A DNA stretch of 64,000 nt from NCBI GenBank assembly GCA_040219255.1, contig JAVJSW010000060.1:6249-70248 (forward strand), written 5' to 3'. Of the stretch, positions 19,534 to 63,903 are shown one piece after another. How positions within the stretch are numbered: position 1 is the first letter of the stretch; each line of letters starts with the position of its first letter. The DNA is from Sumerlaeia bacterium (lineage in GTDB: Bacteria > Sumerlaeota > Sumerlaeia > SLMS01 > JAHLLQ01). The position numbers were made by a program, and so were the translations under genes. Under the pieces are notes generated by a model. It worked only from the letters and a program-made list of their open reading frames with translations. It had not been told where the DNA came from and ran no database searches.

Positions 19534-19679
19534 TTTCCCTATCTCCACAGCGAATCTCAGTCTCCACAACGATCCAAATCTGCGCGGCCTTTCCCACGGC
19601 CCCCACCTCCCACTGCCTTTTGCAACGCATCGAAAACGTTGACACCGAAATGTGGTGCAATTAGGAATGCGTTTGGATT

Positions 19680-20383: not shown

Positions 20384-22267
20384 ATGAGATTGAATCGGAC
20401 CATTACCCTCCTTCCCACCCTCTGTTTCGCGCTCGGAGCCCTGCCGGCTCTGGCGATCACCAGCGAATCGGAAAACAACGGCACCATTTCCCAGGCCGAT
20501 GGCCCGGTGAATTCCGGCGTCAACGTGACCGGCTCGATGGGAAGCGGTGACTCCTATGACACCTTCTATTTCGACACGACGTCGAACGGCACGATCAGTC
20601 TCACCCTGACCGAAGCACGCAACAACGCAGACTACGACCTGTTCCTCTACAACAGCTCGGGGAGCCTTCTGACGTCCGCCGAGACCGGCGCCAACCCGGA
20701 GACGCTGTCCTATTCCGGCGCCTCCGCCGGGCGCTACTATGTCGAACTCTATCGCTACAGCGGCAGCGGCAACTATACCCTCCGCGCCACCTTCCCCACC
20801 GGCGGAGCCAGCCCGACCCCGACCCCGACGCCCACGGCAACCCCCACGCCGACCCCGACCCCGACGCCTACGCCCACTCCGACTCCGACTCCGACTCCGA
20901 CGCCGGTGCCGGGCATCACGCCTTTAACCTCGGGCGTTCAGGTCAGCGGCACCGTCGCCCAGGGGGAATGGGACGATTACTCGATCCTCGTCGCCTCTGG
21001 CGCCACGCGGCTCGACATCGTTCAGGGCGGCAGCAGCGGCGACGCCGATCTTTATGTCCGCTTCGGCGCCCAGCCTTCCTCCACCGTCTACGACTATCGC
21101 CCCTACTTGAACGGCAACAACGAGTCGGTCACCGTCAACAACCCCTCGGCCGGCACGTGGTACATCAGCTCGCGGGGCTACTCGGCGGCCAGTTATACCC
21201 TCGTGGCGACAGTCACAGGCTCATCTCCAACCCCAACTCCAACCCCCACCCCCACCCCCACGCCGACGCCCACAGCGACCCCGACGCCGACCCCGACGCC
21301 GGGCGGATGCAACGAAGGCGCACGCCCGTCGAAACCCGGCGGCTTCACCAACTACCTGACGGGCAACGCAGCGGACGTCTGCGTGTCGCCGATGTCGGGT
21401 CCGGGCGTGATGCTGATGGGCGGCAATTTCGACATCGATGAAGCCTTCACCACCCACGTTTCGCCGATCCTGGCGGGCGGCGACGTGGTGGTTCTGCGCA
21501 CCGGCGCGAGCAACGGCTATCAGGATTACCTGTTCGGCCTGCTGGCTCCCGACTCGGTGGAAACGCTGGTGATCGACACGGTGACCAAGGCCAATTCGGC
21601 CTATGCCAGTTGGGTCATCCGCACCGCGGAATTCGTCTACATCGCCGGCGGCGATCAGGCCGAATACCTCAACGCCTGGAAGGGCACCGCCACGGAAGAC
21701 GCCATCCGCTACGTTTACGATAAGGGCGGAGTCGTGGGCGGCATTTCCGCCGGCTGCGCCATCATGGGCGAAGTCATCTACGACCCGGACGGCGTATCGG
21801 GCATCCTGGCCAGCGAGGCGCTGTCGAACCCGTGCCACCCGAACATGGTGCTCAGCAACGACTTCCTGAACTTCCCGCTGACGAACAACATCATCACCGA
21901 CACGCACTTTGCCCAGCGCGACCGCATGGGCCGCCTCGGCACCTTTATGGCCCGCATCGGCCAGTCCGGTTTCACACCCTTCTCGAACCCCATCGTGGGC
22001 GTCGGCGTGGACGAAGACACCTCGATGTTCATCAACAAGAACGGCGTCGGCTTCGTCCAGGGCGACGCGGCGGTGTACGTTCTGAGCGACACCGGCTCGA
22101 CCGTGCGCCAGCGCGTCCAGTGCGGCCAGAGCCTGCAATACCTCAACGTTCAGCGCATCAAACTGACGGTGGGCGACACCTACAACTTCACCAACGGATC
22201 GCACACCGGGGCCTCGGCGACGCTGAGCTTCAGCAACGGCGCCATCACGCCAAGCAACCCGTACTAA
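20384..22267 (+). CDS. Secreted peptidase S51-like (cyanophycinase/dipeptidase E fold) with two N-terminal PPC (pre-peptidase C-terminal) domains joined by Thr-Pro repeat linkers
   Basis: Signal peptide; 'GGDQAEYLNAWKG...GGISAGCAIMGE' S51-like; TP repeats; ATG at 20384. Confidence 0.65.
   Translation: MRLNRTITLLPTLCFALGALPALAITSESENNGTISQADGPVNSGVNVTGSMGSGDSYDTFYFDTTSNGTISLTLTEARNNADYDLFLYNSSGSLLTSAETGANPETLSYSGASAGRYYVELYRYSGSGNYTLRATFPTGGASPTPTPTPTATPTPTPTPTPTPTPTPTPTPTPVPGITPLTSGVQVSGTVAQGEWDDYSILVASGATRLDIVQGGSSGDADLYVRFGAQPSSTVYDYRPYLNGNNESVTVNNPSAGTWYISSRGYSAASYTLVATVTGSSPTPTPTPTPTPTPTPTATPTPTPTPGGCNEGARPSKPGGFTNYLTGNAADVCVSPMSGPGVMLMGGNFDIDEAFTTHVSPILAGGDVVVLRTGASNGYQDYLFGLLAPDSVETLVIDTVTKANSAYASWVIRTAEFVYIAGGDQAEYLNAWKGTATEDAIRYVYDKGGVVGGISAGCAIMGEVIYDPDGVSGILASEALSNPCHPNMVLSNDFLNFPLTNNIITDTHFAQRDRMGRLGTFMARIGQSGFTPFSNPIVGVGVDEDTSMFINKNGVGFVQGDAAVYVLSDTGSTVRQRVQCGQSLQYLNVQRIKLTVGDTYNFTNGSHTGASATLSFSNGAITPSNPY
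20809..20912 (+). repeat. Coding tandem repeat (Thr-Pro linker 1) inside the S51 gene
   Basis: Imperfect ccgac(g/c)cc(c/g)ac repeats encoding TPTPTP... Confidence 0.7.
21223..21305 (+). repeat. Coding tandem repeat (Thr-Pro linker 2) inside the S51 gene
   Basis: Same repeat class encoding SSPTPTPTPTPTP... Confidence 0.7.
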
Positions 22268-22298: not shown

Positions 22299-22340
22299 GC
22301 CCCCGGCCCGCCCCAGCGCAGGCCGGGGGCGGATTGCTTA
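22299..22340 (+). terminator. Putative terminator hairpin after the S51 gene
   Basis: gcccccggcccg...cgggccgggggc hairpin; weak U-tract. Confidence 0.35.
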
Positions 22341-22696
22341 AAGGTAGCACGGGCGTCCCGCCCGTGACCCGCCAGCCGCCTGCCACGCCCTATTCTGTTA
22401 TCGCAAACGCACTGTTCGCAGAGGAAGCCGAGAGTCGGCTCTCGGAGAAAAAGCGCTGCTGGGCACGGGCGGGACGCGCCGTGCTACACAGAAATATTAA
22501 ACCATGGTATTACCGAGATAAGAAACACATCCTCCACCACATGGTTGCAACCACCCTCATCCGCGCCATCCGCGCGATCCGCGCGATCCGCAGCAAAAAA
22601 TCCCCCTCCCTCTTGCCAAGCCCCCGCCCCCTGTGCCAGCGTCCCCCGCTCGGCGCGCTTGCGCTTTACACCACAGGACTTACGCCACCGATCCTC

Positions 22697-24319: not shown

Positions 24320-24486
24320 CATGGCCGTCCCGGCCCTGCCGGCACTCTGGACGCCCACCCGGCTTGGATAATCTAAGCCGCTCGCCCGTGGGCTGGCGGG
24401 TCTGGCCCGCACGGAAACGACTTCGCCGGAACGCCTCCGCCGGCGGGTGAGGACTGACGAATCGATTCGTTCAACGCAAGCACGCT

Positions 24487-24590
24487 CATGGTTCGGGGCT
24501 CCGGTGAGGATGGGGAGAGCCTAGGCGAAGGCATGGCGAAAAGTCAAGCCTCATTCGCAAAAAATTCGCCTTGCGCCGCCGGGGCCGGGG
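24487..24590 (+). repeat. Conserved intergenic motif, copy 1 (about 100 nt, candidate structured RNA)
   Basis: Shares the GGGCTCCGGTGAGGATG...CTAGGCGAAG...GGCGAAAAGTCAA...TTCGCC core with 59583-59680. Confidence 0.4.
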
Positions 24591-37423: not shown

Positions 37424-37737
37424 GGATGAACCACAGAGATGACACAGAGGAGCGAGGTTGCACAGAGGTCGGGTGCAGTCAGGATCGGAGCATTCCAGAA
37501 AACGGACACACAGCTCAAAGAATCGCGAAGGCTGAGGGTGGATAGAATCAGTGGTTCGCGGGTAAGGAACGGGATTTGACTTGTTATCCAAAAACCAAAG
37601 AAAACTCCTGGTTTGTTCCTTGTAATCTGCGTGAGCTTTCTGATTTCCGAGTTTTTTCTCTGAAAAAGCAGCCCGTAGGCTCCGAAGGTTTTCTGATTTT
37701 CTGCGAAAACTCTATCCTCTGCGTCCTCTGTGGTTAT
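37424..37737. repeat. Intergenic element of about 310 bp with imperfect terminal inverted repeats (CACAGAGG-repeat arm), copy 3, upstream of prs
   Basis: Left arm 37424-37475 (ccacagagatgacacagaggagcgaggttgcacagagg) and inverted right arm 37700-37737; AT-rich interior; related copies at 60884-61197 and 63594-63903. Confidence 0.45.
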
Positions 37738-39499: not shown

Positions 39500-39794
39500 C
39501 TCGGCGGTTTCTCCTTAGAAACCAACCAGAGAGGATGGCGCAGCCAGGCGCCGAAAATCAAGCACTTGTATGAGGGCTTGATAAAACCTTGGAGCGCAGA
39601 GGGGAAAAGTGGCCGGGAGGACAAAGTTGCCACGGATCGGCACGGATGGGGATTCAGATAAACAGAACTAAATGAATATTCTCCCGCATCCGTGCCCCGT
39701 TCAGGATCGAGAGACCCAGGCGGCTCCAAGCCGCGCCGGAGCGATCCCCCTCAGTGAAGCCTCTCTCCTCTGTACCCTTCTGTGGTTATTGAGT

Positions 39795-40217
39795 TTACCC
39801 CACCAGCTCCGCGTCCGAGAACCAGAGCGCCAGTTCGCGCGCGGCGCTTTCCGGGCTGTCGCTGCCGTGGACGATGTTTTCGGTGACTTCGGTGCAGTAG
39901 TCGCCGCGGATGGTGCCGGGCAGGGCGTCGGCGGGCTTGGTGGCGCCCATCATCTTGCGGGCCAGCGAAATCGCGTCCGGGCCCTTGACCGCCAGGGCCA
40001 CCAGCGGGCTGCCGGTCATGAAGGCCTTCAGGTCGGCGAAGAACGGCTTGCCGACGTGCTCGGCGTAGTGCTTGTCGGCCAGTTCGCTGCTCATTTTCAT
40101 CATCTTCAGGCCAGCGATGGTGAGGCCTTTGGCCTCGAAGCGGCCGATGACTTCGCCAATCAGGCCGCGCTTCACGCCGTCGGGCTTCACAAGAATCAGG
40201 GTGGTTTCAACTGCCAT
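39795..40217 (-). CDS. ndk: Nucleoside diphosphate kinase
   Basis: 'TLILVKPDGV' and 'NIVHGSDS' active-site His region; ATG at 40217. Confidence 0.9.
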   Translation of the reverse strand: MAVETTLILVKPDGVKRGLIGEVIGRFEAKGLTIAGLKMMKMSSELADKHYAEHVGKPFFADLKAFMTGSPLVALAVKGPDAISLARKMMGATKPADALPGTIRGDYCTEVTENIVHGSDSPESAARELALWFSDAELVG

Positions 40218-47807: not shown

Positions 47808-48425
47808 GGTCGGGGTCCTTGCGGCGGAGTGGGAGTGGATCGGAGCGGCGTGCGGGGACGGCCATGCCTTCGCTTTTCGTTCGTCGAGGCCAATGGGCCT
47901 CCGGCGGCTGGTTTGGCGGCGGAAGTTCCCATTTGGTTTTTGGAAAAGAGGGGAGGGATACCCCGGACTTTTCCACAGCTTCCAGCAAAATCGGCACAAC
48001 GCGGGGATCAGACGCGTTCCCCTAGATGTTGTACCGTGGTTGTGTAGAAGCGCTAGATATGGCGACTGCTGCAAACAAAAAAACGCCTCGCCAGCAACCC
48101 GAGTGAACTCAGAGGGATGGCGTTTTTTCGGATTTCCGATAGAAATGGTGTGGAAAACTGGAAGCCTTGAAATCCTTCGCTTTGCCGCCCAAGCCAGCGG
48201 ACCGCCCGGCTTCTGTCAAGGAGCAATAAATTTCCGATTTTTGGAACGTGAGGGACCGCGACGGGGGGCCGGCCGCCGTGGCCACGACCGGCGGCGCCAT
48301 TTCTTCAAGAGCCAACCTTCCTCCCACGCCCCCGCAAGTCCGCTCAAACCGGAAACCCGGAGCCGCCGAACTCAACGGCCCCGGTCTTTCAAGAGACGCC
48401 GCGGGTCACGGGCGGGACGCCCGTG

Positions 48426-50192
48426 TTACCTTTCGGCTTCCAAGTCGTGGGGCGCCAGTCGTCCCTCCGCCCAGGCCACCAGCCGCTCCTTGCGCCACGT
48501 GACGACGACCGCCACCGCGAACACCGCCAGCGCCGCCGCCACCATCAGCAGCGACGCCGGGACCTCGCGGACGAGGCGCCACGTTCCCCAGCCCGCCACG
48601 AGCAGTGCCTGCGCCGCGCCGGCCGTCTTCAGCGCCATCTCGTGGCGCCAGAATCCGATGACGAGGAACCCGGCGATTTCCGCCGCCAGGAACAGGCCGC
48701 CGACCCAGCCGGGGTGCGCCGCCGCCTGCCACAACCCCAGCCCCGCCAGGACCCAGGCCCCGCACCATCGCTCGGCGTCCGGGCGGTCTTGGAACACGAA
48801 CAGGTCCATCAGCAGGTAAATCGCCAGCGCCGCCTGCATCAGCTCGGGAATGTGGGTCCGGTACGGCCCCGGCAGCCATGAGCCCGCCAGGAAAACCGTC
48901 AGCCACGCCGCGCCGGTCCAGGCCCAGAACGTCTGCCGGAACGCCGCCACCGCCAGCCACAGGACCCACACGCCCCAGACCAGGGCCAGCGGATGGCCCA
49001 CGACCCACAGGAACACGCGCTCGAGGGCATCGATCACCACCGCCCACGTAAAGCCTGCCGCCCCAGTCGTGTACAAACCACCCACGACCGCTAGCCCACC
49101 CAGGACCGCGAGGCGCTTGAGGAACAGCGTCTCGCGCCAGCGCAGCCACCCCGCGATGTACGTGACGCAGACCGCCGCTCCGCACGCGATCAGCGGCAGA
49201 CTGCCGGCCAGCACCGGCGGCGCGGCCAGGGCGCTGTGGCTCGACATCTTGCCTGTCACGTCATAGGGCCCGCCCGAGACGATCAATGCCCCGACCGCCA
49301 GCGCGTCCAACGCGAACACGCGCCCGGCGAGACCTTCGCGATCGCGGGCCGTGTTCACCAGGAACCAACCGAGCCCCAGCAGCGCCGGCGCCACATAGAG
49401 CGCGTAGAAGTAGATGTCGTGGATCTTCGCCGACTCGACGTGGTGGGCGATCATCAGGGCGAAGGGCACCAGAGCGATCCAGCGCGGCAGCCACCATTGC
49501 TGGGCCCTGGTGGCGTAATCGGGGCGGCCGTCGCCGATCTTGAGAACGCCGGTCAGTGCCGGCATCGCCAGCATGTAAAGCAAAGGAATCCAACCGATGG
49601 CGTAGTAATACTCGACCCGCGGGAATTCGCGGCCGCGGTTCAGGGACTCGGGCAGCAGATAGATGAACGCCGCCGCCATCACAAAGCCGAGGAACGCCCT
49701 CGGCGACAGCCGCAACTTCACCAGCATCATCAGGATGAAAAGTTTCAGCGGCGCCGCCAGGAAGCAGAACACCGCCCAGCGCAGCGTGTCGCCCCGCTCG
49801 AAGGTCAGCAGCGCGTTGGCGAAAAAGGTGGGGTCGAGAAGGAGCAGCACCTCGATCTGAAAGAGCACGTAGGCGTCACTCAGCTTGCGGAATCGCCGCA
49901 CGATGGCGATGGCTGTCGCGATGACCAGCAATTCGTACAGGTGCAGGATGCTCATGGCCTGCAACGTCGGCCCCGGGTCCTGGTTCTCGAACGTCGTGGC
50001 GGCCATGATCTTGTAGCAGCCGACGATGATCAGCAGGGCGCTGATGGGGTAGAACACGTTCTGGCGCAGGGCTTCCGCCGTGGATTTCCAGAACAGTTCG
50101 CGGACGTTCGAGGGCGGCGGGGCTTGGGGCTGGAAGACGGTGGAAGTGGGGTCTGGGGGGAATTCGGAGGCGGGAGAATTCGTTGTGCTCAT
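48426..50192 (-). CDS. Hypothetical polytopic integral membrane protein (over 12 predicted TM segments)
   Basis: ATG at 50192; long hydrophobic segments throughout; no domain recognised. Confidence 0.6.
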   Translation of the reverse strand: MSTTNSPASEFPPDPTSTVFQPQAPPPSNVRELFWKSTAEALRQNVFYPISALLIIVGCYKIMAATTFENQDPGPTLQAMSILHLYELLVIATAIAIVRRFRKLSDAYVLFQIEVLLLLDPTFFANALLTFERGDTLRWAVFCFLAAPLKLFILMMLVKLRLSPRAFLGFVMAAAFIYLLPESLNRGREFPRVEYYYAIGWIPLLYMLAMPALTGVLKIGDGRPDYATRAQQWWLPRWIALVPFALMIAHHVESAKIHDIYFYALYVAPALLGLGWFLVNTARDREGLAGRVFALDALAVGALIVSGGPYDVTGKMSSHSALAAPPVLAGSLPLIACGAAVCVTYIAGWLRWRETLFLKRLAVLGGLAVVGGLYTTGAAGFTWAVVIDALERVFLWVVGHPLALVWGVWVLWLAVAAFRQTFWAWTGAAWLTVFLAGSWLPGPYRTHIPELMQAALAIYLLMDLFVFQDRPDAERWCGAWVLAGLGLWQAAAHPGWVGGLFLAAEIAGFLVIGFWRHEMALKTAGAAQALLVAGWGTWRLVREVPASLLMVAAALAVFAVAVVVTWRKERLVAWAEGRLAPHDLEAER

Positions 50193-51829: not shown

Positions 51830-54513
51830 GCGATCACGACCTGAGAGAAAACGAACGCGAGCCCCAGGATGCGGAGGCAACCGCCAGCGAGGACGGCTTC
51901 TGCGAAGACCGCCTGCCGACAAGAACGGTCATGGCGTCCAGTCTGCTCCTGGGCGCGTTGGCGTTGGCGCATTTCCTGGCGCTGACGCCTTTCACGCACA
52001 ATCTGGACGACGTCAAGTACCTGACGATGTGGAGCGGGGGCGCCATCGCGCTGATGGTTTATTGCGCGATGGTGGCCTTTGGCCGCGCGGCGCTTCCGCC
52101 CCGGATCATCTTCATCCCCTACGTCGGCTACGTTCTGACCCTCGTGGTCTCGACGCTTTTCGCCTCCGAGTCCTACTCGAAATGGATCGGTTGGGAGATG
52201 GTGACATTCCACACGTCGCTGGCCGGGTGGTTCCTGCTGGGAACCGCCACCGCCGCCACGATGCGCTCCGCCCGCTGGACGGCCCGCTATTGGGTCGTGG
52301 TGGCTCTGGTCACTTGCGGCTTCGGCATCTTCCACTTCTTCGGGGGGTTGGAGTGGATTTACGACAAGCTGCCGCCGTTGACGCCGGGGCAGGAATCGCC
52401 CCCCATGCGCGCCTTGATCTTCACCTTCGCCCAATCGCGGGACATGCTCTCCACGATCCTCAACAAGCAGTTCTTCGCCAACTTCCTGGCGGTCATGTTG
52501 CCCGTCTGCCTGGCGGCGGTGGTGCTCAATTTCCACAGCCTGAACGAGAACCTGCGCAAGGGATTGCCGATCACCAATCCGGCAGCCTGGGTCCTGGCCT
52601 CCAGCCTGGGCGTCGTCTTCTGCGCGTTCTGCATTTTCCAGACGTTCTCCAAGGCGAGCCTGTTCGGCCTGCCCCTGGTCTTCCTGGCCTTCGCGATCCT
52701 GGTGCCGCTCTGCACCAGCTATCGCATCCGCATTCCCGCCTGGCCCTTGGCGGCGAGCTTGCTGGCGATCATGATTCTGTCCACGCTGGCGGTGGCCTGG
52801 GCCGAACTGGTGGATCAGTTCCGGTCCGTTTCCACCTCCATGGAATCGCGCGAGATCATCTGGCAGGGCGCCATCAACATGTGGAAGGACAACCCGATTC
52901 TGGGCGCCGGCCCCGGCTCCTTCCGCCTCGAATTCCCCAAGTACCGCTCGCCCGACTACCACCTCTACGACATCAGCAACGTCACCCTCTACGCGCACAA
53001 TCGCTTCCTCGATCTCCTCGCGGAAAACGGCATCGTGGGCTTCGGCTTCTATGTCGCCTTCCTGGGGGCCATCGGCTGGCTCGGTTTCCGGGTCATTCTC
53101 CGCTGCCCATCCCAGAACATGCGCGTTCTGATGATCGGGTATCTTCTGGGTCTGGGGTATTTCTATCTGGGCAATCTGGCTACGCCGATGATGCGCTGGC
53201 CCGTGGGCGCCGTAACGGCGCACCTGGTGCTGGGTATCACGACGGGTCTGATCATGACGGGTCTGCGGGGCAATCTGCCGCCGCCGCAGGAAATGCCAGG
53301 CGTCGCCGTACCCGGTCCGCAGCGCCAGAACTTCCAATGGACTCGCCTAAGCATCGCCGCCGCCACCGCCGCGGTTCTGGCTTTCGGCTATCTGCTCTAC
53401 ATCCACGATCGCGGTAAGCACTACTTCGCCGCCAGCGTCGCCAACAACCAGGGCGTCCTGATCATCAGCCGCACGCCGATGAGCGAAAAGGGCCTGGGCA
53501 TTTCCAAGGCGCAGTTTATCAACTACGCGGGCAACGAGATGGAAAAGGCTCGCAAGCTGTTCGATACGGCGATGGAAGAAAATCCGAATTTCATCACATC
53601 GTACTATAAGCAGGCGCACGTCTATAACCGGCTGGCAAGCCTCTACGAAGCCGCCGGCAATCGGGAAAAGAGCGAGGAGATGCAGCTCAAGGGGCTGGAG
53701 GTCTACGCCGACCTGCGGGAGCTGGCGCCCGATTATTCGGAGATTCACTACAACCTGGCAGTCATCAACGCGGACCTGGCGGACGACTACAAGCAGCAGG
53801 CGCAAGCGATGCCGGCGGGCTCGGAGCAGCGTCAGGCCATGATGGAGAAGGCCCGAGCCACGATGGAGGAAGCCATCGTCTCCGTCGACCGCGCCGCCGA
53901 ACTGAGCAACAAGATCAACGTGTACTACATCCGCGGCCTGTTCTACGAACGGCTTGCAGCGATGCACCCAGAGGGCTCGGAGAAGTATCTGACCGCCATC
54001 GCCAACGCGGCCCGGTCCTATGAAACCGCTCGCGACGCTCCCTTCGCCCGAGTGTTGCAGGACGAAAATCAGCGCGAAACGGAAGAGGCGCAGAAGCGCC
54101 TGGCCGCGGGGAAGGCCGCCGGCCTCTACAACCTGGCCAAAATGTATCCGGAAGCGGGCGAGGCGTACTGGAAAGTGTACCAGGAAAACCCGAACGACAG
54201 CCAGCCCCTCAATCGCGCCATCGTGTCCTTTGTGTTGGCCAAGGACCTGGATCGCGCCGAGGAATTGGTGAAGGAAGGTTTGCGCCGCAACCCGCTCAAC
54301 CCCGATTTCCAACTGGTGTACGCCGAGCTGTTGGCCGAGCAGGCGGCCTCGCGGGAGAATCAGGACCTGGCCTGGAAGGCGCTCGAGCAGGCCCTGTTCG
54401 TCAGCGAAGTGGCCGAGCGCGTTCCCGATTACCTCGACAAGCAGCAGCAAGAACGCCTGACCCGTATCATTCAGCGGGGCCATGGATTGGCCCGCCAATT
54501 GAACCAATCTTGA
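51826..54513 (+). CDS. O-antigen ligase/polymerase-like (Wzy_C) polytopic membrane protein with C-terminal TPR-repeat domain
   Basis: 'YAHNRFLDLLAENGIVGFGFYVAFL' Wzy_C signature region; C-terminal TPR-like repeats; ATG at 51826. Confidence 0.7.
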   Translation: MSDHDLRENEREPQDAEATASEDGFCEDRLPTRTVMASSLLLGALALAHFLALTPFTHNLDDVKYLTMWSGGAIALMVYCAMVAFGRAALPPRIIFIPYVGYVLTLVVSTLFASESYSKWIGWEMVTFHTSLAGWFLLGTATAATMRSARWTARYWVVVALVTCGFGIFHFFGGLEWIYDKLPPLTPGQESPPMRALIFTFAQSRDMLSTILNKQFFANFLAVMLPVCLAAVVLNFHSLNENLRKGLPITNPAAWVLASSLGVVFCAFCIFQTFSKASLFGLPLVFLAFAILVPLCTSYRIRIPAWPLAASLLAIMILSTLAVAWAELVDQFRSVSTSMESREIIWQGAINMWKDNPILGAGPGSFRLEFPKYRSPDYHLYDISNVTLYAHNRFLDLLAENGIVGFGFYVAFLGAIGWLGFRVILRCPSQNMRVLMIGYLLGLGYFYLGNLATPMMRWPVGAVTAHLVLGITTGLIMTGLRGNLPPPQEMPGVAVPGPQRQNFQWTRLSIAAATAAVLAFGYLLYIHDRGKHYFAASVANNQGVLIISRTPMSEKGLGISKAQFINYAGNEMEKARKLFDTAMEENPNFITSYYKQAHVYNRLASLYEAAGNREKSEEMQLKGLEVYADLRELAPDYSEIHYNLAVINADLADDYKQQAQAMPAGSEQRQAMMEKARATMEEAIVSVDRAAELSNKINVYYIRGLFYERLAAMHPEGSEKYLTAIANAARSYETARDAPFARVLQDENQRETEEAQKRLAAGKAAGLYNLAKMYPEAGEAYWKVYQENPNDSQPLNRAIVSFVLAKDLDRAEELVKEGLRRNPLNPDFQLVYAELLAEQAASRENQDLAWKALEQALFVSEVAERVPDYLDKQQQERLTRIIQRGHGLARQLNQS

Positions 54514-54527
54514 CGAACGAGCCCTCC

Positions 54528-55517
54528 ATGACCTTCTCCGCCACCCAAGGCGCGCTTCACATCCGCGTCCCCGCTTCCACCTCCAACCTCGGCCCCGGCT
54601 ACGATGTGCTGGGCTGCGCGTTCCAGCTTCACAACGAGTTCCTCGTGCGCCTCCTCGAGGGCGAAGGGGACTCGGAGATCGCCTTCACCGGGCCCCAGGC
54701 CAAGGGGCTGACGCCGTCGCCGGACAACGTGTTCTTCACCAGCGCGGCCCGGCTGTTCCAGTTTCTCGGCCGCCCCGTGCCCCGGCTGGAAGTCACCGCC
54801 GTCTGCCACGTGCCCAACGCGCGCGGCCTGGGCAGCAGTTCCACCGCCGTGGTGGCGGGCTTGCTAGCGGCGGATGCGATTTGCGGGGGGATGCTGGAGG
54901 ACGGCGGCCAATCGTTTTTCGCCGCGGCTCCGGTCGGCGTCTCCGGCTTGCTGGACCTGGCCAGCCAGATCGAAGGCCATCCGGACAATGTGGCCCCGGC
55001 GCTGCTCGGCGGATTGACCTGCGCGATGATGGCGCCCGACGGCCATGTGGTGGCCAGCCGCTCGCGCCCCCACCCGGCGCTGGGTTTCGTCGTCTACTCG
55101 CCCGATTACGAGGTCCGCACGGAAGACGCCCGCAACGCCCTGCCCAAGACCATCGCCCACAGCGACGCCGTGGCGAACCTGGCGCGGTTGCCTCTCCTGA
55201 TCGACGCGCTGACCCGGGGCGACGCCAGCGAGTTGGCGCTGCTGACCATCGACCGGTTGCACGAACCCTATCGCAAGCCCCTCTATCGGCAGTTCGAGGA
55301 ATTGAAGGCGGTGGCGCGGGAAGCCGGCGCGGCGGCCGCGTGCCTCAGCGGCGCGGGGCCATCGATGTTGGCCATCGGCGTGGTGGAGGACCTGCCGCGG
55401 GTGGCCCAGGCATGGAAAAAAGCCGCCGAAGACTTCGGTCTCGGCGGCGAGGTGCGGGTGTTGGAGGTGGAATACGAAGGCGCTTCGGTTCAATCCTACG
55501 AAAGCGCCCCGTCCTGA
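54528..55517 (+). CDS. thrB: Homoserine kinase
   Basis: 'VPASTSNLGPGYDVLG' GHMP motif and 'GSSSTAVVAG'; ATG at 54528 preferred over the TTG at 54510. Confidence 0.85.
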   Translation: MTFSATQGALHIRVPASTSNLGPGYDVLGCAFQLHNEFLVRLLEGEGDSEIAFTGPQAKGLTPSPDNVFFTSAARLFQFLGRPVPRLEVTAVCHVPNARGLGSSSTAVVAGLLAADAICGGMLEDGGQSFFAAAPVGVSGLLDLASQIEGHPDNVAPALLGGLTCAMMAPDGHVVASRSRPHPALGFVVYSPDYEVRTEDARNALPKTIAHSDAVANLARLPLLIDALTRGDASELALLTIDRLHEPYRKPLYRQFEELKAVAREAGAAAACLSGAGPSMLAIGVVEDLPRVAQAWKKAAEDFGLGGEVRVLEVEYEGASVQSYESAPS

Positions 55518-55559
55518 CGAAAACTCAGGACCTGATCGAGAGCAGCCCCCCGGAAGTCT

Positions 55560-56255
55560 CTAGCCGGTGATGCGGCTGGCCACCTCCATGCCACAGGGAA
55601 CGGGCGGAGCCTCGCCGCCGTAGCGGCCGATGTCGCCTCCGCTGATGGCGCCGTTGGTGGGATCGTAAACGCTGTTCACGCCGAGGTAGTCGGGCTGGAT
55701 GGTGGCGCATCCGGCGCCGTCCCAGCCGTACATGTGGATGTAGCCGAAGAGCTGGTCGGGTCCGGCGCTTTGCAACATGAAGGCGCGGCGGTAAGGCGTC
55801 CCCGGCCCGAAGGCGTTGCGCGAGGCCCAGGTCAGGGGCTCGCCCGGGTTCGTGGACTCGGCGTAGTTATAGAAGAAAATGCTGCCTTCCCACGATCCGA
55901 TCGTCGTGCCGTCTTCCGTGACGAGCTTCGTTTCCTTGCCGAGGAAAGGATCCTGCCAGGGAATGGTGCTGAGGTAAACGGTCGGTGTGGTCAACGCGTG
56001 CAGGCCGTTGCGCGCTTCCACGTCGCGATTGTCGACCGGGTACCGGTTGTGATCGACGACGTAGGATTCCAGGGCGACGGCGATGGTGCGGAAATCCATC
56101 TTGGCGCGGCTGACCTTGGCCCGGGTCTGCGCCTGCAGGAAATTGGGAACGGCAATGGCCGCCAGAATGGCGATGATCGCCACGACGATGAGCAGTTCGA
56201 TCAATGTGAATGCGGGGGCAATACGGCTGAATTTCTGAATTCTGGAAGGGCGCAT
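55560..56255 (-). CDS. Prepilin-type N-terminal cleavage/methylation domain protein, DUF1559 family
   Basis: 'FTLIELLIVVAIIAILAAIAVPNF' type IV pilin-like N-terminus; ATG at 56255. Confidence 0.75.
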   Translation of the reverse strand: MRPSRIQKFSRIAPAFTLIELLIVVAIIAILAAIAVPNFLQAQTRAKVSRAKMDFRTIAVALESYVVDHNRYPVDNRDVEARNGLHALTTPTVYLSTIPWQDPFLGKETKLVTEDGTTIGSWEGSIFFYNYAESTNPGEPLTWASRNAFGPGTPYRRAFMLQSAGPDQLFGYIHMYGWDGAGCATIQPDYLGVNSVYDPTNGAISGGDIGRYGGEAPPVPCGMEVASRITG

Positions 56256-56464
56256 AATCGTCACCTGGAAAAATTGTTTCGCGGTGATCTTTATTGTTAC
56301 CAGACCTGTGCCACTTCTTGACGCTCTTCCAAGTCGAGTCATACCAGTGCGGAACATTTCACTGGTCAGGGCGTCTTGAGTAAGGCCGTTCTCCCTCTTG
56401 TCTCGATTGGAGACTGGGTGTGAAACGGAGTTTCCCTATTATACGGGGGAAAAGACTATTCGCT

Positions 56465-56528
56465 TTAAAATAGAAAATCCCCCGGAGTGAGGGCGCGGCG
56501 ATCCGCAACCATTCTCACTTCCGGGGGA
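56465..56528 (-). terminator. Rho-independent terminator downstream of the O-methyltransferase gene
   Basis: Hairpin tcccccggagtgag...ctcacttccggggga followed on the minus strand by ttttctattttaaag. Confidence 0.5.
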
Positions 56529-56543
56529 ATTCGGCTGTATTTC

Positions 56544-57617
56544 TTACTTGGTGGAAACGTACCAGTAATTCTGAATGTCGTGCTCGAGTTCGTGCACCTC
56601 GGTGCCGAGGAAGCCGGCGTCCTCGAGCATTTCCACGGCCAGTTCCTTGCCCCACGCGGCGCCCAGTCCCATGCCGCCTTGCGCCAGCGAAACGCTCATG
56701 CAGTGCAGGCAGGAAATGGCGTAGATGAACGGGGCGACGGGGTGGTCGAGGTTGTTTTCCAGGTGGCTGCTGGCGCGGATGTCCTGCATCAGGAAGGTCC
56801 CGCCGGGCTTGAGCGCGCGGCGGATGTTCGCCAGCACCAGGTCCGGCCGGGCCTGATCGTGGATCGCGTCGAAAGCCGTGATGACATCGAAGGCGTCTTC
56901 TTCGTCCCAGGCGGCGGCGTTGCGTTCCGCGAACTCGATGTTGGTCAGGCCGCGGGCTTCGGCGGTGGCGCGGGCGCGCTCGACCGCTTCCTCGCACAGG
57001 TCGTAGCCGGTGAAGTGGCTGGCGGGGAAAAGTTCGGCCAGACGGCACAGAGTCAGGCCGCTGCCGCATCCGACGTCGAGGAGGCGGACGCCGCGCTCGA
57101 GGTCGCGCACCAATCCGGGCACGAGCGGCAGGATGTGCTCGGTCAGGGCCGAGCCCACGGTCTGGCTGCTTTCCTCGGCCATGACCGGGTGAAAGCGGGC
57201 GTAGCGTTCGTAGGGAACGCCGCCGCCCTCGCGGAAACAGCGCACGATTTCGTCCTCCACGCCGCCGAGAACGGCGAAGAACTGCATCGGCGAGGCGAAG
57301 TTGTTGGGCCCGGCGGCACGGGTCAGGTAAGCGGCGTGCTCGGCGGGCAGGCGATAGGTCTTGGAAAGCGGTTCGTAATCCACGATGCCGGCGGTGACGA
57401 AGCAGCCGAGGGCTTCGCGGACGTAGCGTTCATTGAGGCGGGCGGCTTCGGCGATTTCCGCCGACGTGCTGTGCGAAAGGTTGGCCATCGTGTCGAACAG
57501 GCCGGTGCGATGGGCGACGGAGATCATGAGGGCGATGGAGCCATGGTTCAGGACGGAAAGCATCTGGCCGGCGAAGGCTTCGGCTTTATCGGTGTTGACG
57601 GTGCATGCGGTACACAT
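56544..57617 (-). CDS. SAM-dependent O-methyltransferase with N-terminal winged-helix/dimerisation domain
   Basis: 'LLDVGCGSG' motif I; about 350 aa, typical of plant-type/bacterial OMTs. Confidence 0.75.
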   Translation of the reverse strand: MCTACTVNTDKAEAFAGQMLSVLNHGSIALMISVAHRTGLFDTMANLSHSTSAEIAEAARLNERYVREALGCFVTAGIVDYEPLSKTYRLPAEHAAYLTRAAGPNNFASPMQFFAVLGGVEDEIVRCFREGGGVPYERYARFHPVMAEESSQTVGSALTEHILPLVPGLVRDLERGVRLLDVGCGSGLTLCRLAELFPASHFTGYDLCEEAVERARATAEARGLTNIEFAERNAAAWDEEDAFDVITAFDAIHDQARPDLVLANIRRALKPGGTFLMQDIRASSHLENNLDHPVAPFIYAISCLHCMSVSLAQGGMGLGAAWGKELAVEMLEDAGFLGTEVHELEHDIQNYWYVSTK

Positions 57618-57942
57618 AGTGAAGGAGTCCTCTGAAGTATAAGAGAAGTAGGAGAGAAGTGAAAGGAAATGTAGGGAAACAATAGGGTCCCGGCGTCTCT
57701 GGTCTCGGGCCGGGCCGGAGCGGGGGAGAACCGGCCCCCGCGGTGAAGGGCGGGAGCATAGTCAGGACGGCTCGCCGGTAAAGTGGAAATGGTTGCAGGC
57801 AACGGAAGTGTCCGCTGGCGGACAAGGCCCGGCGCCTTCGGGCTTGAAATCCCGCGGGCCAGGCCTTACCCCAACGGGCCGGCCGGGCGGGAGGCTTCTT
57901 GCGCCCCCGCCGGCAATCCGCTCCGAAGAGCCCCCACGCCCC

Positions 57943-58575
57943 ATGTCCGCACCCCTCGCCACGAACGATCTTTGGTACGAAACATTCCCCGAATTGGTCG
58001 CCCGATGGTTCAACGCCAAGAGTTCGGCCGAGCGGCTGAGGCTGGTGAACAGCGCCCGCATTTCCATCGCGGCGGAGGAGCGATCCCGCACCCTGATGGA
58101 GCACGCGCGTGTCAAGCCGCTGCCGAAGCTGACCACGGCCCGCCAATGGGATGTGCGATGGGAGCCGAAGGCGGCCTGGGAGCACGTGCGCAAGGGCATC
58201 CGGCGCTTCAACTGGGACTGCAAACGCACGAGAACCAGCGTGGTGCGTCAGGAAATGATGATCGCGGCGCAGGAACTCGATACGGGAACGGGGGGGGCGC
58301 CCTTGGTGCTGGTGGAGGACCGGGTGCTGGAGACCCTGGCGGCGAAGGCGAAAGCGGGCGGGCTTCTGTTGAAAGCGTCGCCGGCGGACCTGGCGCCGCT
58401 GGTGCTGGCGCGCGAGTTATTCTGGCTCGCGGCGGAGGCCAAGCCCATGGCCGGCGCGGGCGAGTACCTCGATGAACTCGCCTGCCACGATTTCGTGGAA
58501 CGGCTGCTCGGTCTGCCGTTCAGCCCCATGGTGTTCGATTTTCTGCCCGATCCGCCCCGCCCGCCCCGCGCATGA
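57943..58575 (+). CDS. Hypothetical protein (210 aa); overlaps the tsaC start by 4 nt
   Basis: ATG at 57943; its stop overlaps the tsaC ATG (ATGA). Confidence 0.45.
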   Translation: MSAPLATNDLWYETFPELVARWFNAKSSAERLRLVNSARISIAAEERSRTLMEHARVKPLPKLTTARQWDVRWEPKAAWEHVRKGIRRFNWDCKRTRTSVVRQEMMIAAQELDTGTGGAPLVLVEDRVLETLAAKAKAGGLLLKASPADLAPLVLARELFWLAAEAKPMAGAGEYLDELACHDFVERLLGLPFSPMVFDFLPDPPRPPRA

Positions 58576-59513: not shown

Positions 59514-59582
59514 GGGAAGACTTGGGCTGGCCGGCCCGCTGGCGGGGGAGGGCGGGCAGGTCGACTCGCTCCAGGAAAAGGC

Positions 59583-59680
59583 GTTCATCGGTCAGGGCTC
59601 CGGTGAGGATGCGCGGAGTCTAGGCGAAGAGAGGGCGAAAAGTCAATGGGTTTTCGTGAAAATTTCGCCCTTTGAGGCCA
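59583..59680 (+). repeat. Conserved intergenic motif, copy 2 (about 100 nt, candidate structured RNA)
   Basis: Homologous to 24487-24590 with a compensatory stem GGGCGAA/TTCGCCC. Confidence 0.4.
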
Positions 59681-59728
59681 ATCGTTGGACCATGGAGGTT
59701 CAGAGAGCGCTCCGGAGGACCGAGCTTT

Positions 59729-60766: not shown

Positions 60767-60883
60767 CGGAGCCGAATCCGGGCCAATCCCGAGCGAGCGC
60801 TTCCGCGCCGCCAGTCTCGGACAATTCAGAGCGAAAACCGGGCGCGGTCAAGCGCATCATTTCCGCCACCGCCACTCCTTGCG

Positions 60884-61197
60884 ATCCTTCACCACAGAGG
60901 ACGCAGAGGACAGAGGTTTCACAGAGGTCAGTTGGAAGGGGTGGTTGGAATAGAGGCTTTCTCCAGGCAAGTCCATGAAAATAAGTGATCTGTCAGTCTG
61001 GTGATGATCTCTCGTTCTTGTGAATGAACAAGAAGGTGCGGTGATCTTGGCGACTTGACGCCTTGCTGATCTCTATTCTGAACGAACGAGTTGTCATTTC
61101 GCAGCCAGCGAGCCCGGGATCGGGACTTGCCGATGGGTGCCGTTGACTTGAAACCCAGTGATTCTCTCAGCGTTCCGTGCGCCTCGGCGGTGATTTC
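60884..61197. repeat. Intergenic element of about 310 bp with imperfect terminal inverted repeats, copy 1, upstream of ispB
   Basis: Left arm ttcaccacagaggacgcagaggacagaggtttcacagaggt (60886-60930); inverted right arm cgtgcgcctcggcggtgat (61176-61194). Confidence 0.45.
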
Positions 61198-61224
61198 TTG
61201 AACCCTCAGGCGCCTCTCTCCGGT

Positions 61225-61275
61225 TCAAAAAGAAAAGGGACCCCGCCGCACCCAGCGAGGCCCCTTTCTTCCGGA
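61225..61275. terminator. Putative bidirectional terminator downstream of the 61308-62714 gene
   Basis: A-run, then GC hairpin (gggaccccgccgcacccagcgaggcccc), then a T-rich tract. Confidence 0.4.
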
Positions 61276-61307
61276 TGGCGCCAGCGGCGGACGGAGCCCT
61301 GCTCCGC

Positions 61308-62714: not shown

Positions 62715-62979
62715 AGTATCGTCTCCTCCGGCAATATGAGTCGCTTTCTGGACTCTAAGAGTCATAACGTAGGAGAGCGGATTGGCCATGACAAGAGTTT
62801 TCGGCAAGTAGTTGCGCCGGAAAGTCGAATCGGTGCAGGAAACTGTGTAAAGAGTGACAGGCCCGGATATGGGAGGTCGCATTTCTCTCGAGGTTCGGGC
62901 GCAGAAAAAAGGGCCGGGAGAGCATACGCCCCCGGCCCTTCGACTGATTCTTCGCTGCCTGTTTGGCCGAACGGGCCTC

Positions 62980-63593: not shown

Positions 63594-63903
63594 TTCTTCA
63601 CCACAGCGGGCACAGAGGACAGAGTTTGCACAGAGGTTGCCAGAATAGCGGTTGAGGGGGATAGCAAGAAAAGCAGTAAGTCCAGTGGGGAGAATAATCG
63701 GTCGCTGCTTCTGGATTTTTCAACTTCCTGTTCGTCAGAAAAGGAGTCTCGATCTTCGAGGATGTGTCTCGAACTTTTGGGAATATCAAGAAAAACCAGG
63801 CTCCCGCGTTCCGTACGCGAAGAATTCGACAAACGCCAGAATCCCTGTGCAACCTCAAGAACTCCAAACTTCTCAGCGCTCTCCGCGTCTCTGCGGTGAT
63901 CAC
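63594..63903. repeat. Intergenic element of about 310 bp with imperfect terminal inverted repeats, copy 2, upstream of the Cys-rich protein gene
   Basis: Left arm ttcaccacagcgggcacagaggacagagtttgcacagaggt (63596-63640); inverted right arm ctctccgcgtctctgcggtgatcac (63877-63903). Confidence 0.45.

Follow-up and report, generated by a model that had tools for sequence, protein, structure and literature searches.

The repeat arms found upstream of prs, of a polyprenyl synthase gene and of a Cys-rich protein gene in the 64-kb window (the whole stretch of Sumerlaeia DNA analyzed) are best explained, with moderate confidence, as a short non-autonomous DNA repeat of the REP/REPIN type, two inverted copies of which, one or both partly decayed, are present in each spacer. 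What the earlier note had described as a family of elements of about 310 bp is a pair of arms lying around unrelated spacer DNA: the DNA between the arms differs from copy to copy without any relationship, so that no "310-bp element" is conserved as a unit. The more general part of that description, a dispersed and repeated non-coding element with an inverted-repeat architecture, stands.

Arms and interiors in the window

Each arm is composed of 2–5 tandem 9-nt units with the consensus CAC(A/G)GAGGA, has an outer terminus of the form TT[A/C][A/G]CCAC and ends on the inner side in a run of A/T (Table 1); the outer ends in copies A–C read TTCACCAC, GAACCAC and ATAACCAC, which fit this terminus. 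The CACAGAGG-repeat left arms previously noticed at three loci were recovered: CACAGAGG occurs 8 times in the window as against 1.64 expected, a number reached in none of 100 shuffles, and seven of the eight occurrences fall inside loci A, B, and C, the left arms of which form a single direct-repeat family (pairwise identity 70–87% across 46 nt). When compared with the family consensus, five arms (A-left, A-right, B-left, C-left and the arm at 39745–39790) gave p<0.0005, whereas the decayed partner arms of C and B gave p=0.002 and a marginal p=0.022, respectively, and two of the eight arms (B-right and D-left) were not clearly above background. The units are short and purine-rich, and these last two arms might be taken to favor chance similarity or purine-rich low complexity without any common origin, but this explanation is practically excluded by the shuffles, by the E-values obtained with a profile derived from 133 arms found in other genomes (3.6e-7 and 3.5e-6 for the best two window arms), by the conservation of positions flanking the search pattern, and by a derived inner unit common to the window arms.

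Table 1. Arms, interiors and sibling repeats located in the window (positions are those of the window)
Feature	Position	Strand	Sequence or composition	Scores and context
Single dialect arm	22553..22600	-	T-run, then GCTGCGGATCG CGCGGATCG CGCGGATGG CGCGGATGA	CGCGGAT units
Copy A, start-proximal arm	37427..37470	+	AACCACAGAGATGACACAGAGGAGCGAGGTTGCACAGAGGTC	nhmmer E=0.13; p<0.0005
Copy A, CCAC terminus	37431			Precedes the prs start codon (37322) by 108 nt
Copy A, interior	37471..37699		229 nt, GC 0.47	Dissimilar to the other interiors
Copy A, stop-proximal arm	37700..37736	-	TAACCACAGAGGACGCAGAGGATAGAGTTTTCGCAGA on minus strand	E=3.5e-6
Copy D, possible relic of other arm	39521..39560	+	AACCAACCAGAGAGGATGGCGCAG	p=0.085, non-significant
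Sibling dialect hairpin nested in copy D	39630..39700	.	GCCACGGATCGGCACGGATGGGG ... CCGCATCCGTGCC	92% complementary
Copy D, stop-proximal arm	39745..39790	-	ATAACCACAGAAGGGTACAGAGGAGAGAGGCTTCACTGAGG on minus strand	p<0.0005
Copy B, start-proximal arm	60887..60930	+	TTCACCACAGAGGACGCAGAGGACAGAGGTTTCACAGAGGTC	E=3.6e-7; best arm of the window
Copy B, decayed partner arm	61155..61197	-	ATCACCGCCGAGGCGCACGGAACGCTGAGAG on minus strand	p=0.022, marginal
Copy C, start-proximal arm	63596..63640	+	TTCACCACAGCGGGCACAGAGGACAGAGTTTGCACAGAGGTT	E=0.55; p<0.0005
Copy C, decayed, expanded partner arm	63840..63903	-	GTGATCACCGCAGAGACGCGGAGAGCGCTGAGAAG...GGTTGCACAGGGATT on minus strand	p=0.002

The inverted partner arm proposed for all three loci is solid in copy A, where 33 nt pair with 76% complementarity (left versus right arm, p<0.0005); it is decayed in copy C, where pairing involves 63622–63638 and 63840–63856 (82% complementary), and only marginal in copy B. 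Loci A, B, and C each lie between co-directional minus-strand genes, upstream of the gene starts as previously stated, the arm terminus being 108 (A), 125 (B; start at 60766) and 150 nt (C; start at 63450) from the start codon. It follows that the CCUCUGUG repeats, which had been placed just 5' of the RBS, are actually 100–150 nt from the start codon. The common orientation of the three loci does hold as regards their co-directional genes, but it tells little, since either strand of an inverted pair gives the same reading. The TAA stop of the gene upstream of copy A (37734–37736) belongs to the terminal motif of the stop-proximal arm, which matches the B-left arm at 91%, and in copy C the upstream gene ends in a TAA stop codon directly followed by the partner arm. 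In copy B, the partner arm comes directly after the intrinsic terminator (61233–61268) that closes the preceding gene, a separate hairpin and the sole terminator near this copy. A fourth locus, missed by the earlier note, was identified in the spacer between ndk and a peptidase C39-like gene (copy D, 39521–39790). The ndk stop codon (39795–39797) is 7 nt outside its stop-proximal arm and 9 nt from the CCAC terminus, and 22 nt separate the possible relic arm from the start of the peptidase C39-like gene downstream of it.

The between-terminus spans of copies A, B, and C are alike (303, 299 and 296 nt). The interiors are AT-rich, as had been noted (GC 0.47–0.51, as compared with 0.637 window-wide), and non-homologous, all the pairwise comparisons giving z<2: these stretches of about 220 nt are unrelated spacer DNA. 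The downstream gene presumably has its promoter there, but the interiors could equally consist of DNA accumulated in a hairpin loop, as illustrated by copy D, where a second element is nested.

This nested element belongs to one of several sibling "dialects", in which a T-run and RCCRC are followed by 9-mers such as CACGGATGA, CGCGGATCG, and CGCGAAGGA. A single arm of another dialect at 22553–22600, which had also been missed, shows a period of 9 (3.8 copies, 96% match) and lies about 100 nt upstream of the coding start of prfC (RF3). In the same part of the window, a genuine GTAG-tagged REP doublet is present at 22340–22490 (one repeat at 22340–22372); it is a family separate from the arms.

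The derived inner unit of the Sumerlaeia arms, AG(A)GGTT[T/G]CACAGAGGT, was found in three window arms and elsewhere in only 2 of roughly 375 arms; judged by this signature, the Sumerlaeia arms are paralogues of one genome-specific subtype. In relatives (Prs identity 64–67%), the gap upstream of prs measures 39–90 nt and no such arms occur in 20 kb. Lack of conservation in relatives, which the earlier note had set beforehand as counting against its proposal, was therefore found at prs. This absence is not a clean empty site, since the upstream gene and the synteny differ. It is what would be expected if the arms had expanded in one lineage, rather than of a regulatory site under conservation. 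No pair of empty and filled sites was found between close relatives, the same-species contigs being 99.95–100% identical to the window. In metagenome scans, neither an inverted junction of copy A nor the window arm subtype gave any match, which is uninformative because the source organism is absent from that collection.

The family across phyla and phages

The 19-mer CCACAGAGGAYRCAGAGGA occurs at at least 120 genome loci, as compared with about 17 expected by our own arithmetic, and at 96 loci / phage contigs among viral sequences. The family is present in at least 16 phyla (counted from record titles), including complete isolate genomes, and the Gemmatirosa megaplasmids carry 18 and 12 family places. 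Outside the search pattern, R is conserved at -1 in 133 of 133 arms and T at -3 and -4. Among the loci listed, 40 of the 41 inverted pairs found elsewhere form whole elements of 51–156 nt (hairpins of about 50–156 nt), which is a further reason for abandoning the notion of a 310-bp family; the tail-to-tail pairs have spacers of 7–26 nt, and 65 loci have a single arm. The loops of most family members measure 10–50 nt and are unrelated between the other genomes.

Of 138 elements placed by means of ORFs from a crude caller, 97 were intergenic, in all three spacer types, 20 lay in an ORF and 21 could not be placed; convergent, divergent, and co-directional spacers are used roughly as the background predicts. 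The 9-nt unit, read by eye, is stop-free in six frames, so that it would be tolerated inside ORFs, as RPEs are. Where an arm terminus faces a stop codon, the median distance is 9 nt, and the terminus often lies within about 10 nt of it. No strand bias was detected, either in genomes (15 versus 9) or in phages (32 versus 24), and no neighbor protein was recurrent, any given protein family being present at no more than 5 of the 120 loci listed. Given these neighbors and the use of all spacer types, the gene-specific cis-regulatory module previously proposed is unlikely, and the elements of copies A, B, and C are, in all likelihood, passengers rather than a dedicated regulatory module of the genes that follow them.

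The other proposal, a MITE-like element, fails on two classical points. Matching 2–5-nt flanks were present in only 1–2 of 37 hairpin elements, which amounts to no target-site duplication, and in its place the palindrome runs 4 nt past CCAC. No parent transposase element was found between arms at the genome loci (about 1.7 Mb sampled), where no inverted pair exceeds 454 nt; at the viral loci, seven neighboring arm pairs span 639–7866 nt. In a Pfam scan of about 30 window genes, no transposase, recombinase or invertase was found, nor was a Y1 transposase present among the window genes scanned in these 64 kb, and the single IS detected at one locus (L160) was not recurrent near other arms. The organization is that of REP/BIME/REPIN-type repeats rather than that of transposase-derived MITEs.

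Within the REP/REPIN-like explanation, the arms would have spread duplicatively into AT-rich sites at gene boundaries, where their terminal TAA/TAG-like motif would often abut or supply the stop codon. They would do so without any target duplication, presumably with the help of a trans-acting factor recognizing the terminal motif and the 9-bp units, and any effects on the genes downstream of copies A, B, and C (via a long-range stem in read-through RNA, for example) would be a by-product. Several findings count against it: filled and empty sites could not be paired between close relatives, and the absence at prs is not a clean case; no mobilizing enzyme was found among about 30 window genes, and none is recurrent near arms elsewhere; the arms are near-identical in at least 16 phyla, whereas REP/RAYT systems are lineage-specific; and the alike spans of A, B, and C are not explained by independent decay.

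The arms might instead be arrays of binding sites for a DNA-binding protein (a global regulator, or a nucleoid-associated or partition-like protein), one protomer occupying each 9-bp unit and the inverted arrays about 300 bp apart looping or insulating the promoter region. This is unlikely, but several features are consistent with it, namely the strict 9-bp period, the defined terminal unit and the location of the arms at gene boundaries. In addition, no compensatory changes were detected between paired arms (permutation p=0.14), and the consensus of the units is maintained in every arm independently, so recognition seems to bear on the duplex unit rather than on hairpin pairing. Paired tandem-heptanucleotide repeats in G. 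metallireducens have likewise been annotated as "predicted global regulator binding sites" (PMC2700814). However, there is no common regulon, the neighbors are unrelated, convergent spacers are used too, and the unit number is hypervariable at orthologous sites. The arms are missing from the orthologous prs locus of relatives and from E. coli. Moreover, a protein recognizing the same sites in 16 or more phyla and in phages would have to be just as conserved, and no such protein is known or was found.

A role at the RNA level is rather improbable. Under this hypothesis, the long-range stem enclosing the spacer in read-through transcripts would serve as an RNase III site, an mRNA stabilizer or an insulator, or the CCUCU repeats of the proximal arm would act as anti-Shine-Dalgarno mimics in the 5' UTR. 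The MFE fold pairs the terminal arms at all four loci, with z = -5.3 in A and -3.2 in D, but the folds of B and C are no better than shuffled sequences (z = -0.6 and -0.3, respectively). Likewise, arms begin right after stop codons, and the purine strand carries GAGG/GGAGG, at Shine-Dalgarno distance in some phage genes (read by eye), but there is no covariation, the arms favor neither strand with respect to transcription, some of them are located in divergent spacers, and a U-tract follows the hairpin at none of the four loci. The window gave only a tRNA in Rfam, both at the gathering threshold and at E<=0.5, and eight compact family members gave only generic, sub-threshold miRNA-hairpin matches at E<=1.

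Intrinsic terminators were rejected: no arm-based terminator and no U-tracts are present at the four loci, and arms are equally common in divergent spacers. A DnaA box (TTATCCACA versus TTAACCACA) would account for neither the 9-mer array nor the distribution, and the same is true of half-parS, CIRCE and boxA, of CsrA/TRAP/Hfq sites, of a tRNA-CCA mimic and of sigma-54 promoters.

Recombination between arms

In the gmd-fcl element, the sequences of B. ovatus and B. finegoldii are identical at 50 of 66 positions when read directly and at 62 of 66 when one is flipped, the flanks being identical at 47 of 48: as read from these alignments, one orthologous copy was demonstrably inverted in situ between the two Bacteroides species. 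Among related phages, some carry and others lack a small-gene cassette with a direct arm at either end, and the number of units at one phage site ranges from 3 to 8. To judge from these sequence comparisons, the arms evidently recombine, by inversion of the enclosed segment, by gain or loss of arm-bounded cassettes and by slippage in unit number.

The segments of about 300 bp might accordingly be regarded as invertons, in which site-specific or general recombination flips the AT-rich interior and switches the downstream gene. Inverted repeats do surround an AT-rich segment of 200–230 nt, 100–150 nt upstream of the gene; a short family member was flipped between the two Bacteroides species; and the one sigma-70-like promoter detected, inside copy C only of the four loci, faces the downstream gene. 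This explanation is nevertheless very unlikely, since three independent contigs from the same population (two samples) show one orientation only, the scan of about 30 window genes yielded no recombinase, and the genes that would be switched have housekeeping functions (prs, polyprenyl synthase). In B and C, decay of the partner arm has gone too far to allow efficient recombination, and the 10–50-nt loops of most family members carry nothing to switch.

A broader proposal, which we hold to be possible but not probable, is that the arms and their sibling dialects may be the DNA substrate of one broadly distributed trans-acting system, the candidates being a recombinase, a transposase or a DNA-binding protein, which in at least 16 phyla and in phages would keep the sequence near-identical, seed gene boundaries and promote inversion and cassette exchange. 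If this is so, the promoter-bearing spacers of about 300 bp before the Sumerlaeia housekeeping genes would be recombination-competent modules.

A family of REPs, REPINs, or MITEs is normally confined to one lineage and linked to a cognate transposase of its own, whereas the present arms are near-identical in at least 16 phyla and in phages. If this pattern holds, it would imply either a conserved trans-acting factor that has so far remained unconnected to the repeat, or very effective horizontal spread, possibly by phage. The arms also have practical consequences: they break assemblies (one Logan contig ends within arm C), they mimic regulatory hairpins, and the DNA lying between two of them can be inverted or lost, a point to be considered in annotation and when intergenic variation in metagenome-assembled genomes is interpreted.

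Comparison with known systems

Like REP, BIME, and REPIN sequences, which RAYT (Y1) transposases mobilize, the arms are short, multicopy and intergenic, occur as singletons and as head-to-head or tail-to-tail dimers with a spacing of tens of bases, have no internal gene and no target duplication, carry a conserved terminal tag beside the repeat body, and are often located at the 3' ends of genes. They differ from REPs in three respects: each REP unit of 20–40 nt is an imperfect palindrome, whereas a single arm consists of direct tandem 9-mers and can pair only with a second arm in inverted orientation; the tag of the arms is RCCAC and that of REPs GTAG or CGTC; and the arm sequence is shared by 16 or more phyla, whereas each REP family is confined to its lineage.

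With MITEs (Correia/NEMIS, Nezha, Rickettsia palindromic elements) the loci share TIRs, an AT-rich interior, a length of 100–400 bp, a non-coding nature and dispersal near genes; the TIRs are solid in copy A, decayed in C and B, and general across the family. Unlike MITEs, they show no target-site duplication, their interiors are not conserved, and no same-ended insertion sequence was found at 216 loci. As in invertons (fimS and the Mpi-controlled promoters of Bacteroides fragilis), inverted repeats flank about 200–300 bp upstream of a gene; unlike in invertons, a single orientation was seen in the population, no invertase gene was found among the roughly 30 window genes scanned (a distant master invertase may exist), the downstream genes are housekeeping genes and the loops mostly measure 10–50 nt. 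The units of STRR (short tandemly repeated repetitive) sequences are heptamers restricted to cyanobacteria and without a defined terminal motif, unlike the window arms. Described by Mazel et al. in 1990, the STRR sequences are reportedly dispersed intergenic tandem arrays of very short units, sometimes inverted, with no function assigned.

Reviews of REPs and RepRanger do not contain the motif, and searches with the terms nonamer and nonanucleotide found nothing. In the literature searched by sequence string, the only match, primer coincidences apart, was a supplement on G. bemidjiensis. The "Nonanucleotide repeats" of this species (Gbem_R9001 onward; Aklujkar et al., 2010, BMC Genomics 11:490, Table S6 / Fig. 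S9; PMC2996986) have the consensus TTT[WCCTCTGTG(R)(Y)]nGTGAG and no assigned function; they are multicopy and lie in spacers 3' or 5' of unrelated housekeeping genes, with 1–3 copies per spacer. Their consensus is the reverse complement of the window arm (..CACAGAGGW.., ending (T)CAC-CAC). The term "undescribed" used in the earlier note is therefore accurate as far as Rfam is concerned, but not with regard to this table. Both repeats have tandem CACAGAGGW in at least two copies, a GTG-GTGAG/GTGAA/GTTAA outer end and an intergenic, multicopy occurrence. The G. bemidjiensis repeats were given as a list in one Desulfobacterota genome, the range across phyla and phages not being part of that description, and the Sumerlaeia arms differ from them in having the derived inner unit GGTT[T/G]CACAGAGGT and in forming pairs about 300 nt apart rather than compact hairpins. 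By this correspondence, the window arms are local copies of a little-studied cross-phylum repeat that had been listed, without interpretation, in G. bemidjiensis.

Arms and interiors at the four loci

Loci A, B, and C, singled out in the earlier note, and locus D, which it overlooked and a looser pattern search recovered, carry arms consisting of tandem 9-nt units, CAC(A/G)GAGGA, with the outer terminus TT[AC][AG]CCAC. On the plus strand, (T)TCACCACAGAGGAC[A/G]CAGAGGACAGAGGTT[T/G]CACAGAGGT is present at each of A, B, and C, the left (start-proximal) arms of which form a single direct-repeat family. The window contains CACAGAGG 8 times, versus 1.64 expected from shuffles, none of 100 shuffles reaching 8, and seven of the eight occurrences fall within A, B, and C, which bears out the repeated arms noted at three loci. 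The right (stop-proximal) arm of A matches the left arm of B in inverted orientation (91%). When each arm was scored against the family consensus (2000 shuffles), p<0.0005 was obtained for both arms of A and for B-left and C-left, p=0.002 for C-right, and p=0.022 for B-right; the inverted partner, claimed for all three loci, is therefore solid only in A, a decayed relic in C, and marginal in B. In D, the stop-proximal arm is significant (p<0.0005) and the other is not (p=0.085); this locus also has, nested within it, a sibling-dialect hairpin built of CACGGAT units.

The interiors are AT-rich, as reported (GC 0.47-0.57 vs 0.637 in the window). They are not homologous, all pairwise global alignments in both orientations giving z<2 relative to shuffles, and the proposed element of about 310 bp does not hold as a unit. 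The spans from terminus to terminus (303 nt in A, 299 in B, and 296 in C) are unusual for the family since, among the matches listed, 40 of the 41 inverted pairs that have CCAC on the outside measure 51-156 nt, the remaining one 454 nt. The common orientation of the loci is uninformative because an inverted pair reads identically on both strands; the sole asymmetry is which arm decayed.

All four loci lie between co-directional genes. One arm of the pair begins at the upstream stop codon or a few bases away, and in A the TAA of the upstream gene falls inside the terminal ATAACCAC. From the end of the other arm to the downstream start codon, the distance is 108 (A), 125 (B), and 150 nt (C). A Pfam scan of approximately 30 window genes revealed no transposase or recombinase.

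Other repeats were observed in the window. The CCGAC/CCCAC repeats are coding sequence for Pro/Thr-rich linker repeats and bear no relation to the arms. The two copies of a 134-nt direct repeat are 73% identical, show no match in Rfam, and may represent a leader or promoter common to both sites. CTCCACA[G/A]CGA occurs twice in direct orientation, 19 nt apart, directly past a stop codon (TTTCCCTATCTCCACAGCGAATCTCAGTCTCCACAACGATCC).

Positions of the repeats described (window coordinates unless a contig is named; for loci A-D, strand and setting refer to the neighboring genes)
Feature	Position	Strand	Setting
Locus A	37424-37737	minus	weak methyltransferase-like gene, then prs
Locus B	60884-61197	minus	DUF3370-like gene with its own terminator, then polyprenyl synthase gene
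Locus C	63594-63903	minus	unnamed gene, then Cys-rich 156-aa protein gene
Locus D	39521-39790	minus	ndk, then peptidase C39-like gene
Single dialect arm	22553-22600	minus	T-run, GC, then TGCGGATCG CGCGGATCG CGCGGATGG CGCGGATGA
GTAG-tagged repeat, GGTAGCACGGGCGTCCCGCCCGTG	22340-22372; 22458-22490; 48401-48433		separate family
CCGAC/CCCAC repeats, 12-nt period	20787-20936; 21215-21314		inside 740-aa PPC-domain/peptidase S51 gene
134-nt direct repeat, GGCTCCGGTGAGGATG..GAG.CTAGGCGAAG...GGCGAAAAGTCAA...	24437-24570; 59536-59669		spacer upstream of ComM/Mg-chelatase-like gene; spacer beside polyprenyl synthase gene
CTCCACA[G/A]CGA pair	19540-19590		
Logan contig L131 (SRR26147846)	52980-63899		
66-nt gmd-spacer hairpin	L123:2986-3085; L132:2491-2590		compared between B. 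ovatus and B. finegoldii
Tandem array with arm	L011:147-539		Acidobacteriota MAG

Distribution and anatomy of the arm family

The exact pattern CCACAGAGGAYRCAGAGGA, scanned in one genome per species, was found at 120 or more genome loci, as compared with about 17 expected by chance according to our own arithmetic (596 Gb, both strands, 17 fixed and 2 two-fold positions). At positions not forced by the pattern, the base preceding CCAC is A/G in all 133 arms, the two bases before it are mostly T, and a third unit is usually present. Near-identical arms occur in at least 16 phyla, complete isolate genomes among them; based on record titles, the taxa include Acidobacteriota, Bacteroidota, Cyanobacteriota, Pseudomonadota (alpha, beta, and gamma), Desulfobacterota, Planctomycetota, Verrucomicrobiota, Chloroflexota, Gemmatimonadota, Bdellovibrionota, Nitrospirota, Armatimonadota, Cloacimonadota, Bipolaricaulota, and one Clostridia MAG. 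In the annotated plasmids collection, the megaplasmids of Gemmatirosa kalamazoonensis carry the pattern at 18 and 12 places, and Bacteroides at many. It is absent from 5,426 E. coli genomes. Viral contigs contributed 96 loci; genes for a large terminase and a DnaB-like helicase are present in one contig that was checked (L160).

A profile built from the arms was searched against all the loci. Among the matches listed, tail-to-tail pairs have spacers of 7-26 nt, and 65 loci carry a single arm only. Beyond CCAC, the palindrome runs 4 nt more (TTAA, TTCA/TGAA, TTAG/CTAA, or TTTG/CAAA). The 138 elements comprise 97 placed in intergenic spacers, 20 inside ORFs according to a crude ORF caller, and 21 at locus edges; the intergenic ones (61 co-directional, 19 convergent, and 17 divergent) approximate background proportions. 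In the cases where the terminus faces a stop codon, it lies a median of 9 nt away, and no target-site duplications, one of the checks proposed earlier, were found around the elements. Nor does any protein family recur beside the arms (best 5 of 120 among the matches listed), which speaks against a gene-specific regulatory module.

The arms pair in the predicted folds of all four window loci, as would be expected if they acted in RNA, either as a long-range stem or as an anti-SD-like leader. However, the folds of B and C do not surpass those of shuffled sequence, there is no covariation, and single arms favor neither strand with respect to transcription (15 vs 9 in genomes, 32 vs 24 in phages), so that we regard this role as distinctly improbable. 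The variable inner parts of two arms paired in one hairpin resemble each other no more than those of arms from different elements do (permutation p=0.14), and compensation therefore does not maintain pairing: each arm follows the unit consensus independently.

Arms also occur within larger structures. In an Acidobacteriota MAG, three tandem copies spaced about 187 bp apart have a unit starting with an arm (CTTAAACCACAGAGGACACAGAGGAACACGGAG...); an arm can be a component of a larger tandem array. In Nostoc (L008, L058, L074, L085, and L120), a single arm lies within an element of about 95 nt with the outer inverted repeat AGGACTTACGCA ... TGCGTAAGTCCT, which is composite and MITE-like since its sites differ between species. 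The single dialect arm of the window, which follows the same grammar with a different unit (period 9, 3.8 copies), is located about 100 nt upstream of where the RF3 coding sequence starts, and further 9-mer arrays (CACAGATGA, CGCGAAGGA, and CACAAAGG) were observed in L015, L043, L051, L061, L098, and L138. Together with the CACGGAT hairpin of D, their sequences suggest a superfamily of dialects.

Probable spread and observed recombination

The derived inner unit AG(A)GGTT[T/G]CACAGAGGT is present in three window arms versus 2 of approximately 375 arms elsewhere. This identifies the window arms as paralogues belonging to a single genome-specific subtype and favors duplicative spread within this lineage. 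The Prs protein of the window is 100% identical to an NCBI entry for a Sumerlaeia MAG ("MAG: Sumerlaeia bacterium"); its next relatives show 67% identity. In three Sumerlaeota relatives, the prs locus reads glmU-like, prs, L25, with gaps of 39-90 nt, and no window-type arm is present in 20 kb; one of them (L127) has a single degenerate 9-mer array away from this locus. Because the upstream gene differs, the comparison proposed in the earlier note yields no clean empty site.

In Bacteroides ovatus and B. finegoldii, a 66-nt hairpin occupies the orthologous gmd/GDP-L-fucose synthase spacer, with 47 of 48 flanking positions identical. The element matches at 50 of 66 positions directly and at 62 after reverse complementation, and has evidently been inverted in place. 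Such flipping, and the geometry of the approximately 300-nt segments, would suit invertible promoters, but only a single orientation was seen at the window loci, no invertase was found among approximately 30 window genes scanned, the downstream genes are housekeeping genes, and the partner arms are decayed, which makes this explanation very improbable. No variation was seen within the population: two samples yielded contigs of the same Sumerlaeia population that match the window at 99.95-100% identity and share its orientation. L131, an independent assembly from another sample (100% over 10.9 kb), terminates exactly within the stop-proximal arm of C, which is consistent with repeats breaking short-read assemblies.

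In related phage contigs (L139, L142, L148, L149, L168, L169, L179, and L190), an arm occupies the same gene junction; slippage is apparent in the unit number, which ranges from 3 to 8 at one site. A small-gene cassette of about 230 nt (a gene of about 52 aa) between two direct arms is present or absent among related phages. The 9-mer is stop-free in all six frames, and in several phage genes a good Shine-Dalgarno and ATG lie 5' of the arm; the arm may therefore yield, on translation, an N-terminal M-K-I/L-T-T-E-D-T-E-D-T-E repeat. A DNA-binding protein with its sites arrayed along the arms would fit units conserved one by one, without compensation between arms, but the hypervariable unit number and the fact that no regulon was found make this unlikely.

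The best-supported reading, with about an even chance of being correct, is that the arms are a non-autonomous, REP/REPIN-like DNA repeat. Tandem arrays of 9-bp units with a defined terminus would have been amplified in this Sumerlaeia lineage, presumably with a trans-acting factor, landing at AT-rich gene boundaries, probably neutrally for the adjacent genes, and can recombine with each other. On this reading, unrelated spacer DNA at loci A-C lies between two inverted arms, of which one is intact and the other decaying. The data show that the arms form a family, how it is organized, that it is not linked to particular genes, that the window arms are a genome-specific subtype, and that inversion and slippage occur elsewhere, while the mode of spread, the trans-acting factor, and neutrality are inferred. 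Neither the near-identity in at least 16 phyla nor the similarity of the A-C spans is accounted for by the REP/REPIN-like reading.

Comparison with known systems

In Rfam, the window arms matched no known family even at E<=0.5, in line with what the earlier note had supposed, and compact family members gave only sub-threshold miRNA-hairpin matches. Intrinsic terminators were ruled out: the arms have no U-tracts, and the sole terminator near B is a separate hairpin. Overall, the observation of the earlier note is confirmed in part and its interpretation supported in part: what stands is an element that is repeated, non-coding, and built of inverted repeats. It is not a classical MITE, given that neither target duplication nor a conserved interior nor, in 216 loci, a parent IS was found; a one-off IS, in a single phage, is the only transposase seen close to an arm. 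RAYT-type REPs are self-complementary and carry a GTAG/CGTC tag, whereas the arm has neither feature. The GTAG-tagged repeat of the window is distinct and has the appearance of a classical RAYT-type REP: a pair of inverted copies, separated by 85 nt, gives a very stable REPIN-like hairpin in the spacer upstream of prfC (fold z = -5.1), and the third copy is 97% identical.

Searching the literature with the arm sequence itself returned nothing relevant, and no description of the cross-phylum or phage distribution was found in the literature searched. The family is nevertheless not entirely undescribed, as had been claimed: Table S6 of the Geobacter bemidjiensis paper lists "Nonanucleotide repeats" (Gbem_R9001 onward) with the consensus TTT[WCCTCTGTGR0-1Y0-1]nGTGAG, 1-3 per intergenic spacer, beside unrelated housekeeping genes, the text of the paper stating only that their implications await elucidation (PMC2996986). 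In the window, the feature would be a passenger repeat of an ordinary kind; the family as a whole is under-studied and unusually distributed, and since the G. bemidjiensis consensus is the reverse complement of the window arm, it has been catalogued once, unexplained.
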